Below are positions 14,217-19,416 of a stretch of DNA of 64,000 nt, piece by piece. Numbering within the stretch: position 1 is the first letter of the stretch; each line of letters starts with the position of its first letter. A program made the translations under genes and the position numbers. A model generated the notes under the pieces. It saw nothing but the letters and a program-made list of their open reading frames with translations. It was not told the DNA's origin and searched no databases. Source of the stretch: an uncultured Nitrospiraceae bacterium (GTDB lineage: Bacteria > Nitrospirota > Nitrospiria > Nitrospirales > Nitrospiraceae); assembly GCA_963846575.1 (NCBI GenBank), contig CAWJWJ010000001.1, positions 1,152,001 through 1,216,000 of the forward strand, read 5' to 3'.

Positions 14217-15071
14217 TTACCGTCCGAGCGATGAGGGGCGGAGCCCGTCGCTGCCGCGCGGAGGCATGTCGATGGATGGAGACGATGCGGGTTGCTGCCG
14301 GGGGGAGGGTGGAACGATCAGGCCGGCGGTACTATTCTGCCACTGGGCGACCGCCGCCCAGCGATTCTCCACGCCGCCCAGCTTTTGATACACATTCTTG
14401 AGGTGGAACTTCACCGTGTTGAGGCTGACGTGCAGAATGATCGAGATTTCCCAGTTCGTTTTGCCTTCGGCCACCCATCGCATGATCTCTTCTTCGCGCG
14501 CCGTCAGCACCGCCTGGTGAGCCGGCTGCTGGTCCTCGCCCGGACGGCTCGTCGCGCGGAGATAGGCCAGATGAAAATGTGGCGCGAGGATCTGCATCAT
14601 GGTGCGCAACCGGAGCAAGAGTTTCTGGTCGAAGTTGCTGAAGGCATAATAGGTGCAGAATCCGAGCACCCCGCGCACCCCTACCGTGAGGCAGGTCTTG
14701 ATACCGGCGTCCAGTTTGAGGTTGATGACTTCACGGGGAATCGGCATGTCCAGACAGTCTTCGCTGGATACCGTCCCGATATGGGTTTGTTGAAGAAGCT
14801 GAATCGCGGGATCGGTGACATACCCCTGGGTGGCATACAGATGGGTATGCTCCTCCCCATAGGTCGAATGTCCGATCTGTAATTGTTTTTTCTGAAGATG
14901 GAATGAGCCATTGGCGGAGAATCGATGGGGGACGAGAGAGCCGACAGCCTCCGCGAGGTCGGGAAGCTGGTCCCGATCCTGAATTTTTCGCACCCGCTCC
15001 ATGATTTCTCCCATGTGCTGAAATTCCTTGCGGGAGAGATACTGAAGACTTTCAGGTCCGCGAAAGATCAT
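14217..15071 (-). CDS. LuxR-family (QS-type) regulator with autoinducer-binding-like domain; no luxI in window (LuxR solo)
   Basis: Y..GYVTDP in the N-domain; C-terminal HTH LTAREEEIMRWVAEGKTNWEISIILHVSLNTVKFHLKNVYQKLG. Confidence 0.85.
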   Translation of the reverse strand: MIFRGPESLQYLSRKEFQHMGEIMERVRKIQDRDQLPDLAEAVGSLVPHRFSANGSFHLQKKQLQIGHSTYGEEHTHLYATQGYVTDPAIQLLQQTHIGTVSSEDCLDMPIPREVINLKLDAGIKTCLTVGVRGVLGFCTYYAFSNFDQKLLLRLRTMMQILAPHFHLAYLRATSRPGEDQQPAHQAVLTAREEEIMRWVAEGKTNWEISIILHVSLNTVKFHLKNVYQKLGGVENRWAAVAQWQNSTAGLIVPPSPRQQPASSPSIDMPPRGSDGLRPSSLGR

Positions 15072-15364
15072 GGTACGACCTCACTCCCGTGAATCCTGGG
15101 GCCCGGACATCACGTCAAGACGCGTTGCGGATTGGCCGGCCAAATCCTGATTTGAAGACCCTGTCTCACACCACACCATTCGAGCAGGCTGAAACTTATC
15201 TACACGAACATCTGACTGAGGCATAGCGTCCTTCCAATGCGGTGAATTCGTGCACGGAAGTAGAAGCGATGGGAACACGCGGGTTGAAATTGAGAACCTG
15301 GTCCGGCCTCATGCGGTAGTACCCTGGTGGAGCATGCCGATTGTACCCCTCAGCCAGGACATAG

Positions 15365-15412
15365 CTAGGGTCGTTCGAACCTAGTATAGAGTGCCGGCGA
15401 GCCCAACCGCAA
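15365..15412 (-). promoter_or_regulatory. Putative luxR promoter overlapped by an imperfect 20-bp palindrome
   Basis: Minus strand TTGCGG (15412-15407), 18-nt spacer, TATACT (15388-15383); palindrome CTAGGGTCGTTCGAACCTAG at 15365-15384 (16/20 symmetric). Confidence 0.4.
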
Positions 15413-15467
15413 TCCAGAAAAGCTCGCGCAGAAAGTCGTGGCTGCACGCCGGATATGCTGACCGTCG

Positions 15468-16451
15468 TCAACGCTGGACCTTCAGCGTGGGGCCGAGGGC
15501 GAGCCACTTTGTCGGGCCGATCGCGGCCATGTGAGGGAGATGGGCGACATACCAGAACACGAGGTCCTGCTCCTGCACGCCTTGATTGTCTTCATCATAG
15601 CCGAGCTGCCCGCGGGCTCCGAATACCCAGGGGATGTCTTCGTCGGGATTGGCCCGGCGGATCGCCACATCGTGGTCGGCGAAATTATCGCGTTCTCCGT
15701 CGTCCTTGAGTGGTGCGTAGCCCTCGCCCGGCAGGATCCAAATGCCATGTCCGGTCGGCTGATCACGGACGAACCAGATTCGATGGGTGCTGAGGTTTTT
15801 GACGTCGTTGCGTTCGTTCACGTATTTTTTCCAGCCCGGTCCCCAGCCCTGATCGGATCCTCCGTCATCGTGGAGGAAGACCTGGTCCATGCCGTTGCCG
15901 TTAATGTCAAAATCAAACCGCCAGTAGGGATGGTGTACGTGGTCGGTGTTACAGGAAAGGCCGCGACTGTGAACAACGGGCCGTAACTCGCCATCGTCTG
16001 AGAGGTGCCAGGATTGATAGATATGGTATTCGCCGATCCTGGCGTAGATGCCGAGTTCCAGCCACTTCACCCCCCCTACGCTGGAGCTCTCGACACAGAC
16101 CTTGTGGTTACCGCAGTTCACAATCGGGACCAGATCCTGCCAGCGCAACCGGTCTTGAAAGGGGCCGCAGCGGCCGCTGTCGGCGCGGGAACCGAACCAG
16201 GTGAAGGGATTCCACCACCGGCGTTCTTTGACGTATTTCACCCGCACGACCGGCATGCTGGCTTTGGCCAGAACCGGTTCACCGCCGTAGACAAGATGTC
16301 GAAGCGCGAGGCCGGTGCTGTCTTTGACTTCGTAGTCGAAACTCCAGCGCCCCCAATCGAGATGTTCCGACAGCTGCTCCGCCGAACCGGGCAGCGGCAG
16401 GGCCAAGGCCAGGGTCCAGAACAGCACGGCAAGCAGTGCAATGCGTGTCAT
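15468..16451 (-). CDS. Secreted protein resembling the catalytic domain of copper amine oxidases
   Basis: Signal peptide (MTRIALL...GSA-E); GRWSF...GLAL...VLAKASM, IGEYHIYQSWHLSDDGEL, HVHHPYWRFDFDI, DLVFWYVAHLPH align by eye with CAO motifs. Confidence 0.6.
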   Translation of the reverse strand: MTRIALLAVLFWTLALALPLPGSAEQLSEHLDWGRWSFDYEVKDSTGLALRHLVYGGEPVLAKASMPVVRVKYVKERRWWNPFTWFGSRADSGRCGPFQDRLRWQDLVPIVNCGNHKVCVESSSVGGVKWLELGIYARIGEYHIYQSWHLSDDGELRPVVHSRGLSCNTDHVHHPYWRFDFDINGNGMDQVFLHDDGGSDQGWGPGWKKYVNERNDVKNLSTHRIWFVRDQPTGHGIWILPGEGYAPLKDDGERDNFADHDVAIRRANPDEDIPWVFGARGQLGYDEDNQGVQEQDLVFWYVAHLPHMAAIGPTKWLALGPTLKVQR

Positions 16452-16470
16452 GCGGTATCCTTTCGCTTGT

Positions 16471-17268
16471 CTATCGGGGCGGTTCATCCCCAGCGTCCAG
16501 CACACGATCATCGGTCAGATCCACCTGCGCCCAATACCTGGGGTCGCCATCCTGTCCCTGGGAGAAGGTAATCCAGATGACCCGGTGTTGATAGCCGGGA
16601 TCGTGCTTGAAGAATCCGCGATCCGGCTGCATGAGGAGCCCGTGTCCCTGCAGAGACCCCACCTTTCCGGCGAGCCGTGCATCGGCGCGGGCTAACTCGA
16701 TCCCCCGCTGAACATCCTGCGGTCCTTCGGGGGGCAGATAGCCTTCCTGTCGCGAGGCCTGCAGCACGGACCGGTCCTTCATGCGCACGAAGATGGCGAC
16801 GTTGTTACTGTAGCTGAAGTAGGTCAATCTGGTGAATCGCGCCTCATTTCGGCAGCAACCGTAGGAGACTTTGCCTTCCGGCGGCAGACGATCCGCATCA
16901 ATAAACGTCCAGCGGGTACCCAGGAGGGCAGTCACCTTGGGATCGCCTTCGGCCGCTTTTCGCATCGCGGTCATCTCCGAGTCCGACAGGACGGCTGCGT
17001 CATTGGGCGACCGCATGACGGCCGCCTCGATGACCGTTCCCGCCATCTTGGGTTTGATGTGCCCGACGGATTCGTCGGCCGTAAATCCCAGGGTGTGTCT
17101 GGTTGGTATGTGAGCCGGAAGCGGCGTTTTGGGAATGGCGGTTTCTGGATCTTCCGGCCCGAACGGCCCACGAGAACCGGCATCGAGGCTGCAGCCGATC
17201 TGGATGATGCAGGGCAGCGAGACGAGGCAGAACGAGATGGCTAGTCGGCGGTTCACGCGGGGCCTCAC
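16471..17268 (-). CDS. Lipoprotein, possibly equivalent to the N-terminal (N2/N3) domains of copper amine oxidases
   Basis: Lipobox-like IQIG-C; two alpha/beta repeats, ending YWAQVDLTDDRVL; GTGA overlap with the upstream gene. Confidence 0.5.
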   Translation of the reverse strand: MRPRVNRRLAISFCLVSLPCIIQIGCSLDAGSRGPFGPEDPETAIPKTPLPAHIPTRHTLGFTADESVGHIKPKMAGTVIEAAVMRSPNDAAVLSDSEMTAMRKAAEGDPKVTALLGTRWTFIDADRLPPEGKVSYGCCRNEARFTRLTYFSYSNNVAIFVRMKDRSVLQASRQEGYLPPEGPQDVQRGIELARADARLAGKVGSLQGHGLLMQPDRGFFKHDPGYQHRVIWITFSQGQDGDPRYWAQVDLTDDRVLDAGDEPPR

Positions 17269-17786
17269 ACGACCGCCAGTTTGCCGGCGACGCCGAGCGC
17301 CAATCTGGACAACTGGGCCGCGGCCTTGATGACGGCGGCCCGTTTCTTCCGGGAAGCCCCATCGAGCACGGCCCTGCTCAAGAGATCTTTACACACGGTG
17401 ATGTCGTCGGCTTCAAAGGGAACGATGCGGGCTATCGTGTCGTTGTTGAAGGTATTGGCCAGTTGTACATAGAGATTGGAGATTTCTGCTGCGTAGATCC
17501 CTCGCCGCAGAGGGTCGTTCTTATAGGTTTCAAACTTCTTCCGCAGAGCGGCTACGGCATCCAGCAATGCCGTTTGACGAACTTTGGTCTCATCCTGACG
17601 GCAGACCGCGAATTCTACGGTCCCTAACTGATCGACCAGGCTTTGTGCTTCGTCCCGCGCATGGTCCACACGCGTAGCCAGTTGTTCGATATCAGTGGCG
17701 GCGCTTTCGGCTGTCTCCATCAGTTGCTTGATCAAACTGTCATTGTTTTGGAGATAGGTGACCACTCCCTCGATGCTGCGGTTCAT
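17265..17786 (-). CDS. Hypothetical alpha-helical/coiled-coil protein
   Basis: 173 aa; SD GGAGG; heptad-like helices; tightly packed in the operon. Confidence 0.7.
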   Translation of the reverse strand: MNRSIEGVVTYLQNNDSLIKQLMETAESAATDIEQLATRVDHARDEAQSLVDQLGTVEFAVCRQDETKVRQTALLDAVAALRKKFETYKNDPLRRGIYAAEISNLYVQLANTFNNDTIARIVPFEADDITVCKDLLSRAVLDGASRKKRAAVIKAAAQLSRLALGVAGKLAVV

Positions 17787-17797
17787 AGAGGCCTCCC

Positions 17798-18505
17798 TTA
17801 CTGCCCCTCGTCCTTCTTCAGGCGGTCGAGGAGTTCCACCAGGTCGGCGGTGAAGTTCTGTGCCCGCGCCAATCCGCCGACCCGCAGGATACGCGCGCCG
17901 ACGATTTCCTCCAGCGCGTCATTCACCGTGCGTGAGCGATTCAAGACTCCCATGATCTGCTCGGATCGGCCGGGAGCGTGATCCAGGATTGCGCCGACGA
18001 ATTCAGGATCGACGGATGCCAGAGCCGACTGTCTCGCGAAGCGCGTGAGTTGAGCATGGAGGGTCGCCGTCTGCTTCCATGAGTCGTTGAGGGCATTGGC
18101 CGTATCCCGGAGACCGCAGAAATCCTCTTCAAATTGGTCCCAGACTGCCTTCTCCAGTCCCTGTGCATCGGCCATATACATGAGGCTCACGAGATAGGCC
18201 GCGGCATAGGCGGACTCGCCCTTTTTGTTGGTCACGTTCCGGAACGACTCCATAACAAAGCGGTGTTTGGTTTCGAGGGTCTGAAGCGATTTGAAGCTCT
18301 CATGCAGGGAACTGCGGGCATCCTCCAGGAATTTGATTCGGGCTTCTGTCTCTTTCTGGAACAGATCGATGTTGGTCTGCGCGGCATCGATCTTTATGCC
18401 CTCCAACTGGATGAGATCCCGCACGGAGCTGCTGTGGATGGAATGGCAGCCGGTTGCAGCGAGGAGTACCAGAACCATGAATATCGGCGTACGGAGCCGA
18501 ATCAT
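17798..18505 (-). CDS. Hypothetical helical lipoprotein
   Basis: MIRLRTPIFMVLVLLAATG-C lipobox; SD AAGGAG before 18505 (alternative start 18541). Confidence 0.7.
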   Translation of the reverse strand: MIRLRTPIFMVLVLLAATGCHSIHSSSVRDLIQLEGIKIDAAQTNIDLFQKETEARIKFLEDARSSLHESFKSLQTLETKHRFVMESFRNVTNKKGESAYAAAYLVSLMYMADAQGLEKAVWDQFEEDFCGLRDTANALNDSWKQTATLHAQLTRFARQSALASVDPEFVGAILDHAPGRSEQIMGVLNRSRTVNDALEEIVGARILRVGGLARAQNFTADLVELLDRLKKDEGQ

Positions 18506-18537
18506 GGCCCGCTCCTTCTTCCCGCCGTCCGGCCCGG

Positions 18538-19170
18538 TCATCGGCGCACCTGACGTACCGCATCGGCCAGCGCCTGGGTTTCGGACCGACTGACCGTGAC
18601 ATCAATGTCCAGGTATTGCTTGATGATGGCATTAATCCGGCGAAGGGCTTCGACATTCGTCCGGTACTGATCGAACGCGGTGAGGTCCAGGGTGGAAGTC
18701 GCCTGCGAGTCCGCCGCGACGCGCTGTTCGACGCGTGCAATAAGCTCGGGGAGCTGCTGCACTAGATTGCTCATGTCACCCGAGCCGGCCGAAAAGACCG
18801 GTTGCCCGTTCGGCCCCTTGCGCTCCGGAAGGGAATTCAGACGGATCTGATTCACCACTGCAATGATCTCCGGGCCCAGAAGTGCGGCATCGTCTTCAGT
18901 GATGGCCCCATCCGGAACGCCCGTCAACGTGGGATTGGTCGTCGCCCACTGCAGCGCGAGATTGAGCTTGAGGCGGGTTTGAATGAAGCGATACCACTGG
19001 ACATGTCGGGTGGTGATGTTGCTCACGAGTTCACGGTACTGCTGCATGAGCCTCTGGTGTTCGACATATGCCTGGTCCTTCGCGGCGAGCGCCTGTTTTA
19101 TTTCAGGCGGCGTCGTGCAGGCAGCAAGTAGGGCACACATCACCCAGCTACATAGGCGCGACATTCTCAT
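18538..19170 (-). CDS. Hypothetical helical lipoprotein
   Basis: MRMSRLCSWVMCALLAA-C lipobox; SD GGAGG. Confidence 0.7.
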   Translation of the reverse strand: MRMSRLCSWVMCALLAACTTPPEIKQALAAKDQAYVEHQRLMQQYRELVSNITTRHVQWYRFIQTRLKLNLALQWATTNPTLTGVPDGAITEDDAALLGPEIIAVVNQIRLNSLPERKGPNGQPVFSAGSGDMSNLVQQLPELIARVEQRVAADSQATSTLDLTAFDQYRTNVEALRRINAIIKQYLDIDVTVSRSETQALADAVRQVRR

Positions 19171-19416
19171 CGGGACGCCTCCCCGTACAAAATCCCGGCG
19201 CAAGACCGCAGTTGGAATAGGCAAACTACATACCTCACCGGGATGAATGAATTGTTGGCCGGAGTATGCGTGGATTGCCTGAGCTACAAGGGAAAATCCG
19301 AACATGTCGCAGATTGCTACATTTTAGGACTTTCGAAATTCTGTACTCATTCAGATACGGCTGTATCGAAGCCAATACAGTGGGGAATACCGGGCTGGAG
19401 ATTGCCTGTAGTTGCC

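Follow-up and report, generated by a model that had tools for sequence, protein, structure and literature searches.

We analyzed a 64,000-nucleotide stretch of the genome of an uncultured Nitrospiraceae bacterium (contig CAWJWJ010000001.1), hereafter called the window, in which five co-directional, tightly packed open reading frames (ORFs) lie on the minus strand between positions 15468 and 19305. Two of them are the subject of this work: a gene for a 265-aa lipoprotein (16471-17268, minus strand) and, directly downstream, a gene for a 327-aa secreted protein (15468-16451, minus strand). A first-pass annotation, made from the sequence alone, had taken the pair for a split relative of the copper amine oxidases (CAOs), with the catalytic domain D4 on the secreted chain and a part of the N-terminal domains on the lipoprotein. 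The TAG stop codon of the lipoprotein gene (16471-16473) is separated by 19 nt from the start of the D4 gene, which is most likely the ATG at 16451, with an AAAGGA ribosome-binding-site-like element 8 nt upstream; orthologues share the start position of this 327-aa frame in our family alignment of 26 sequences (A1). An alternative 347-aa frame would begin at 16511, inside the lipoprotein gene. The lipoprotein gene in turn overlaps the gene before it by 4 nt and has an alternative GTG start at 17256, which would give a 261-aa product. A promoter and terminator scan returned nothing on the minus strand, with counts not above those of shuffled sequences, and no RNA evidence is listed for positions 15300-19400 of the window. 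Residue numbers below are those of the full-length proteins counted with the initiator Met, and codon positions were checked by script.

The 327-aa protein is clearly, if remotely, homologous to the CAO catalytic domain D4. Used as a single sequence in a phmmer search of the PDB, it retrieved two chance matches and no CAO, and the NCBIfam primary-amine oxidase model scored it at 16.5 bits against a cut-off of 651. The Pfam model PF01179 matched at 30.3 bits (cut-off 27), covering just residues 49-105 of the 347-aa frame. When the A1 profile was searched against the PDB, the phenylethylamine oxidase of Arthrobacter globiformis (AGAO) was found with an E value of 3.9e-11, profile positions 19-307 aligning to AGAO 228-597, and the primary-amine oxidase of Escherichia coli (ECAO) with an E value of 1.9e-5. 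Comparison with an ECAO alignment by hhalign gave a probability of 90% for A1 and of 95% for A4, an alignment of 19 relatives that do not have a loop specific to Nitrospira (short-loop relatives). The AlphaFold2 (AF2) model of the chain, with a predicted local distance difference test score (pLDDT) of 84.6 and a predicted template modeling score (pTM) of 0.82, has the antiparallel beta-sandwich catalytic fold of the CAOs, as seen in the model itself and in the Foldseek and VIA comparisons. With this model as a query, Foldseek returned CAOs throughout the matches listed, at a probability of 1.00 and a best E value of 3.7e-14, with 171 matches at E ≤ 1e-3; VIA superposed residues 27-326 on AGAO 235-616 with a Z score of 29.1 and a root mean square deviation of 2.5 Å over 275 aligned residues of 20% identity. 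According to both the profile and the VIA alignments, the mature protein begins where canonical D4 begins, preceded by what reads by eye as a Sec-type signal peptide cleaved after GSA24. Judged by the PF01179 score, the A1 profile match to AGAO and the VIA superposition, the resemblance to CAOs goes far beyond chance. We also considered the lysine tyrosylquinone (LTQ)-type lysyl oxidases as an alternative copper-quinone family and rejected them, since no Pfam match was obtained and the only "lysyl oxidase" entries retrieved were those of PPLO, which is a CAO.

The order of CAO motifs on which the first-pass annotation had relied was recovered in full, each motif aligning with its canonical element in the profile alignments. 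Three of these alignments agree on the pairing of Y73, Y142, H171/H173 and H307 with CAO residues. In the segment IGEYHIY, Y142 (codon 16026-16028) pairs with the topaquinone (TPQ) tyrosine of IGNYDY in AGAO and with ECAO precursor Y496, so that the tyrosine singled out earlier as the TPQ precursor is indeed kept. H171 and H173 of the segment DHVHH (codons 15933-15941) pair with the copper-binding H-x-H element HQH, residues H554/H556 of the ECAO precursor. In WYVAHLPH, which pairs with W-x6-H, the equivalent of the third copper ligand is the last histidine, H307 (codon 15531-15533), corresponding to AGAO H592, a residue named in the title of PDB entry 1ui8, and to ECAO precursor H719. The earlier claim that the copper-ligand histidines are retained therefore stands for H171, H173 and H307, with the correction that the third ligand is H307 and not H304. 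Y73 (codon 16233-16235) in the segment VKY pairs with the tyrosine of AGAO VVPY and with ECAO Y369 (precursor Y399; named in the title of PDB entry 1jrq), the counterpart of HPAO Y305. This conserved tyrosine is described in passages of PMC3382800, for HPAO-1 Y305, as hydrogen-bonding to the O4 of TPQ.

Conservation of these residues was counted over 153 representatives aligned to the A1 model, namely, 146 clusters at ≤50% identity and 7 further relatives. Tyr is found at position 142 in 146/150 and at position 73 in 137/141, and His at positions 171, 173 and 307 in 148/150, 145/150 and 136/137, respectively. Two further histidine positions are shared with tyrosine across the family: at position 174, 90 of 150 representatives have H and 43 have Y, and at position 304, 79 of 138 have H and 39 have Y. 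W36, E213, E271 and D296 are additional near-invariant residues specific to the family. For the catalytic base, D100 (codon 16152-16154) in the [F/Y]-x-D motif F98-Q-D100 (16152-16160) is the likely candidate, with F98 at the position of the gate tyrosine, because the short-loop A4 alignment pairs Y-x-D with Y411-L-D413 of the ECAO precursor (hhalign probability 95.3%, E value 2.1e-8). These ECAO residues we take to be the gate Tyr381 and the base Asp383 in mature numbering. Asp occupies position 100 in 137/146 representatives, and position 98 is Y or F in 134/143. Elsewhere in D4, a conserved pair of cysteines, C95 (116/137) and C167 (123/150), could form a disulfide that ties the base loop to the His loop.

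The tyrosine that would become the cofactor does not sit in the usual context. As had been noticed at first reading, the canonical N-Y-D/E is replaced by E-Y-H, the window reading R-I-G-E-Y-H with E141 and H143 as the flanking residues. Across the family, position −1 to the tyrosine is A in 42, S in 27, N in 23, E in 15, K in 13 and D in 10 of 150 representatives, while position +1 is D in 37, H in 28, R in 25, V in 17, K in 11 and I in 10. Passages of PMC3382800 give T-x-x-N-Y-D/E as the conserved TPQ consensus of CAOs, with N-Y-D/E strictly conserved, and report for the yeast enzyme HPAO-1 that the N404A mutant contains only 5-10% TPQ and that biogenesis is approximately tenfold slower in E406Q. 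Because the flanks are lost here and these HPAO-1 flank mutants are impaired, TPQ formation is not assured in this enzyme, and since the flanks vary across what we call the mini-CAO family, another quinone cofactor or another substrate, as first suggested, is possible. As judged from the aligned sequences, the family misses one defining feature of the classical CAOs and keeps the remaining catalytic residues.

The lipoprotein consists of a lipobox (IQIGC) with the lipid-attachment residue Cys26 (codon 17191-17193), a conserved extended linker of approximately 60 residues (27-95), and two alpha/beta modules (96-174 and 183-261), each made of a helix plus four strands. Cys26 is invariant in all 27 sequences of the lipoprotein alignment (A2). 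Single-sequence searches gave no Pfam, NCBIfam or PDB (phmmer) match, and the lipoprotein profile searched against the PDB gave one irrelevant match with an E value of 0.22. The AF2 model built from A2 (pLDDT 75.3, the first 95 residues being of low confidence) was then compared with known structures: all matches listed by Foldseek at E ≤ 1e-3, of which 44 were counted, were CAOs, and VIA superposed residues 88-265 on AGAO 9-195, ECAO 85-284 and HPAO 22-212 with Z scores of 8-10.4 and 166-175 aligned residues, the two modules lying on CAO domains D2 and D3 in their canonical mutual arrangement. The structural comparison that the first-pass annotation had called for thus placed CAOs on top for both chains. 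Its reading of the C-terminal "AQVDLTDDRVL" as similar to the CAO N3 domain also held, in that this segment is similar to the stretch with which ECAO D3 ends (consensus "VAVVDLEQKKII") and the whole of 88-265 superposes on D2+D3. Altogether, the predicted structure identifies the lipoprotein as CAO domains D2+D3 carried on a separate chain.

Two features of this chain deserve mention in their own right. The linker between lipid anchor and D2 (residues 27-95; 16984-17190) carries the conserved motif RGPFGPEDPET..K..LP...P..H.L.F ... KP, and metagenomic partners from distant lineages match the A2 model from approximately position 42 onward. In the D2-like module, a vicinal Cys-Cys pair, C138-C139 (16852-16857), forms a GCC motif between strands and is kept in at least 90% of the 27 orthologues.

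The two chains occur together well beyond the window. By tblastn, the lipoprotein gene lies directly upstream of D4 in 78 of 80 reference-genome loci, whose titles, apart from one (L014, Nitrosospira), refer to Nitrospira or to a higher rank within Nitrospirota; in the remaining two (L064 and L074), the sequence begins with the D4 gene, and there is no DNA upstream of it. In 80 metagenomic loci seeded with short-loop relatives, the D4 gene was immediately preceded by a co-oriented ORF matching A2 in 74 cases, and the remaining six have less than 270 nt of upstream DNA; in some lineages of this set, D4 shares only 41-50% identity with that of the window. A lipoprotein-like region is moreover fused ahead of D4 in 7 of 266 D4-family proteins. 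In the fused relatives P0250, P0344, P0347, P0357 and P0113, the N-terminal region is homologous to the lipoprotein with E values from 1.9e-27 to 2.5e-12 (P0250, 1.9e-27; P0113, 2.9e-23; P0344, 1.2e-20). The split is ancient and conserved, with an export signal of its own on each chain.

The first-pass annotation had proposed a predicted heterodimer as a further check. When the complex of lipoprotein and D4 was predicted, it reached an ipSAE score of 0.82, with 0.00 for the best of three controls; a score of 0.82 is attained by 116 of 157 solved complexes and by 2 of 215 mismatched pairs. The runs agreed in at least 77% of contacts, with a partner pLDDT of at least 78. The predicted interface is made by D3 residues 176-183, 209-218 and 232-248 together with linker residues 39-93 of the lipoprotein, and the lowest-error contacts of the prediction are those of K72 and P73 of the linker, which pack on D4 strands. 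Because the complex model packs the linker on D4 and distant partners match from approximately position 42, the linker may be more than a tether; as canonical CAOs do not have such a segment, its contact with D4 is a prediction only. Together, the profiles, the two structure predictions, the gene adjacency, the fused relatives and the complex prediction support the proposal of a two-subunit, membrane-tethered minimal CAO.

We consider it probable, at roughly 60%, that the pair is a CAO relative split into two exported chains, a D2+D3 lipoprotein and D4, with a likely copper/TPQ site that oxidizes a primary amine. In the proposed mechanism, both chains would be exported, the lipoprotein by its lipobox and D4 by its Sec signal peptide, and would assemble in the periplasm through the predicted 1:1 interface, in which D3 and the lipoprotein linker pack on D4, so that the lipid anchor would tether D4 to a membrane. 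Cu(II) would be bound by H171, H173 and H307, and Y142 would be self-processed to TPQ and held by Y73. A primary amine would then form a Schiff base, to be deprotonated by D100, and the products would be an aldehyde, NH3 and H2O2. There are weak hints that the substrate is an amine of the envelope or one bound to a polymer and not a small amine used in catabolism, because the pair has no aldehyde-catabolic neighbors and because lectin, carbohydrate-binding (CBM) and immunoglobulin-like (Ig) modules are fused to relatives.

Several observations count against this two-chain copper/TPQ oxidase. The family does not have any characterized member, and the defining T-x-x-N-Y-D/E consensus is lost, both flanks of the tyrosine being variable. 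D4 has no equivalent for approximately 100 residues of the canonical domain (275 of 382 AGAO positions were aligned), and the missing parts may include the beta-hairpin arms; according to passages of PMC3382800, these arms close off the active site of the partner subunit from behind in canonical dimers. The pairing of the base with D100 arises only in the short-loop alignment; the A1-based alignments pair the ECAO/AGAO base with D91 or a neighboring loop residue, D91 itself lying in the Nitrospira-specific loop, which is of low confidence, and not being conserved even in close relatives. More generally, the active-site residues are assigned by alignment. Since solved single-chain CAOs exist, the complex score may in part be memory. 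Finally, the ORF list and a Pfam scan gave no aldehyde dehydrogenase and no amine transporter or uptake gene in the cluster.

Alternatively, the pair could be the same split copper protein of CAO fold with a different chemistry, in which the tyrosine ligates copper or forms a radical or another cross-linked quinone, and in which the substrate is not a free primary amine. The N and D/E flanks, which tune TPQ biogenesis according to passages of PMC3382800, are not conserved, positions 174 and 304 (His or Tyr family-wide) offer extra candidate residues for such a chemistry, and the family-specific near-invariant residues named above add to them. Set against this, the tyrosine, the three histidines, the TPQ-holding tyrosine and [F/Y]-x-D are retained together, which is the simplest signature of TPQ chemistry, and in the HPAO-1 flank mutants described in the same source, TPQ was slowed or lowered, never abolished; we hold this alternative to be rather unlikely, if worth keeping in view. 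More speculative still, and in our judgment doubtful, is a heteromeric copper/quinone oxidase in which the N-terminal strap of the lipoprotein replaces the dimer arms and which acts under relaxed cofactor-motif rules on amines carried by polymers of the envelope or matrix (such as peptidyl lysine or amino sugars; in Nitrospira possibly the three co-operonic proteins), in lysyl-oxidase-like cross-linking or remodeling.

It is also conceivable that the pair retains the CAO fold as a non-catalytic copper-binding or structural element of the periplasm, given that it shares its operon with three lipoprotein or coiled-coil genes, possibly structural themselves, and that catalysis is predicted only. 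The near-invariance of residues needed for catalysis alone, Y142, Y73 and D100, would be hard to explain for a binding protein, and we regard this reading as very improbable. A broken single gene, that is, a canonical CAO cut by a recent stop codon or frameshift and present as a pseudogene or an assembly artifact, would account for two adjacent ORFs collinear with the order D2-D3-D4. We rejected it, and assign it practically no probability: the two chains are equipped for export separately (an invariant lipobox cysteine on one, a hydrophobic signal peptide on the other), the split recurs in the 78/80 and 74/80 independent loci described above, down to a D4 identity of 41%, and the segment connecting D3 to D4 is absent rather than interrupted. 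The split copper/TPQ amine oxidase remains the reading that we prefer.

The three genes upstream of the pair (17265-19305, minus strand) encode a 255-aa lipoprotein (18538-19305), a 247-aa lipoprotein (17798-18541, overlapping the former gene by 4 nt) and a 173-aa protein with no signal peptide and only weak coiled-coil-like matches (17265-17786). They are present in 69, 70 and 71 of the 80 Nitrospira loci, in four of which (L060, L061, L064 and L068) they are inverted and flank the pair on its opposite side; in more distant lineages, they were not detected beside it. None of them matched a significant Pfam or NCBIfam family, sub-threshold coiled-coil noise apart. Searched in the ESM Atlas, the 247-aa lipoprotein retrieved only clusters of "hypothetical protein", mostly from Nitrospirota, and paralogy between the 255-aa and 247-aa lipoproteins was not detectable by BLASTP (E value 0.19). 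We regard these genes as forming an apparent operon with the CAO pair, associated with it rather than a proven part. In 12 distant metagenomic loci, no recurring functional partner of the pair was found, the neighbors including PilZ/receiver, class IV aminotransferase, transposase, HrpB helicase, TIR, MFS, MbtH and HMGL-like proteins. Downstream of the pair in the window lies a gene for a LuxR/GerE-type regulator with a weak autoinducer-binding domain (14217-15071, minus strand), whose best NCBIfam match is EpsA-like at 94 bits, below the cut-off; it adjoins the pair in just 30 of the 80 Nitrospira loci.

The family to which D4 belongs is large. The A1 profile matched 1181 clusters at 50% identity with E ≤ 1e-3, 669 with E ≤ 1e-10 and 200 with E ≤ 1e-30, and 550 loci were found in reference genomes and 583 in metagenomes. 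Many members are long proteins in which the mini-D4 comes first and is followed by He_PIG, Big (Big_7/9), PKD, CBM_4_9, ricin-lectin or PPC modules (including P0242-P0337), a domain composition that suggests targeting to surfaces or polymers. Two relatives, P0110 and P0111, have a C-terminal extension of approximately 150 residues. Among 301 sampled Nitrospirota genomes, 26 carry a mini-CAO gene, the window genome included; it was found in all 10 other genomes of the same genus and in 15 of the 26 genomes from one sister genus, and not in the other genera sampled. The window genome has one copy, and no canonical CAO was found in it. Two congeneric genomes contain a second, distant mini-D4 paralogue (G018:C68:3132-4028, E value 2e-42; G263:C12:543000-543842, E value 6e-32), located in longer open frames of 581 and 540 aa, respectively. 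In one genome of the sister genus (G036:C1:441323-442388), the D4 match falls into two pieces (model positions 5-200 and 203-325) approximately 100 nt apart and is perhaps frameshifted or interrupted. The locus titled "uncultured Nitrosospira sp. isolate NOB2" (L014, CAADGJ010000334.1) has a pair of the Nitrospira type, 81% and 75% identical to that of the window, and is probably a mislabeled Nitrospira bin.

In our literature search, which subscription-only papers lay outside, no paper turned up on a bacterial CAO that is split, made of two chains or limited to D4. The sequence search of "The tree of life of copper-containing amine oxidases" covers animals and plants, according to passages of that paper (PMC12058724). 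Passages of a metagenome and metatranscriptome study from 2024 (PMC11327836) report an "amine oxidase" encoded and transcribed in Nitrospira metagenome-assembled genomes (tags NOB01_19_62 and NOB02_03_198) and count it among ammonium-producing functions, with no closer description given there. One of our loci (L060) lies on contig NOB01_19; its identity with NOB01_19_62 is not confirmed, the contig name alone being in common.

If the preferred reading is correct, Nitrospira gains a periplasmic oxidase that releases H2O2 and NH3; that such an enzyme would supply ammonia to a nitrifier, as first proposed, is speculation. The family is of wider interest for its architecture. D4 is smaller by approximately a quarter than the canonical domain, D2-D3 are carried on a separate exported chain, at minimum in Nitrospira and in several lineages farther away, and the supposedly essential flanks of the cofactor tyrosine are free to vary while the other catalytic residues are all kept. 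Should the pair be active, the minimal requirements for self-processing TPQ formation and for CAO assembly would need to be redefined, and a 34-kDa catalytic module of this kind could serve biocatalysis.

How the pair compares with characterized CAOs can be summarized by enzyme. Classical topaquinone CAOs, assigned to Pfam PF01179 with PF02727/PF02728 and to EC 1.4.3.21/22, are homodimers of 70- to 80-kDa subunits that two beta-hairpin arms hold together, and those with known structures are all single-chain homodimers according to passages of PMC3382800; the classical placement of D2+D3 on the same chain as D4 does not hold here, where these domains form a separate lipoprotein. AGAO (PDB 1avk, 1av4 and 3wa2) is the best profile and structural match of D4, its residues 9-195 (D2+D3) superpose on lipoprotein 88-265, and its TPQ tyrosine, H-x-H, third histidine and O4-bonding tyrosine align with those of D4. 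Unlike the Nitrospira pair, AGAO is a single chain of approximately 620-640 residues that forms a homodimer, has N-Y-D at the cofactor and a D4 approximately 100 residues longer, and is not a lipoprotein, whereas the pair has D2-D3 and D4 exported separately, E-Y-H in place of N-Y-D, and a conserved linker ahead of D2. The periplasmic ECAO/TynA (PDB 1oac and 1dyu) shares the fold (Z score of 26.8 for D4 and 10.4 for D2+D3) and differs in being one chain of 757 aa with an extra D1 stalk; its gene, tynA, lies in a catabolic locus beside feaB (aldehyde dehydrogenase) and feaR (regulator), whereas the Nitrospira pair has no such neighbors.

PPLO, the lysyl oxidase of Pichia pastoris, uses TPQ to oxidize peptidyl lysine and in this way sets a precedent for polymer-bound amines as CAO substrates. 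Its fold is that of the CAOs (PDB 1n9e, 1w7c and 1rky; Z score of approximately 25 to D4), and it differs from the Nitrospira pair in being a eukaryotic glycoprotein of one chain that carries the canonical motif. The fused mini-CAO relatives (P0250, 631 aa; P0344, 765 aa; P0347; P0357; P0113) have the same short D4 and the same conserved residues and differ from the pair in carrying D2/D3 and D4 on one chain, to which some add CARDB, CBM_4_9 or DUF642.

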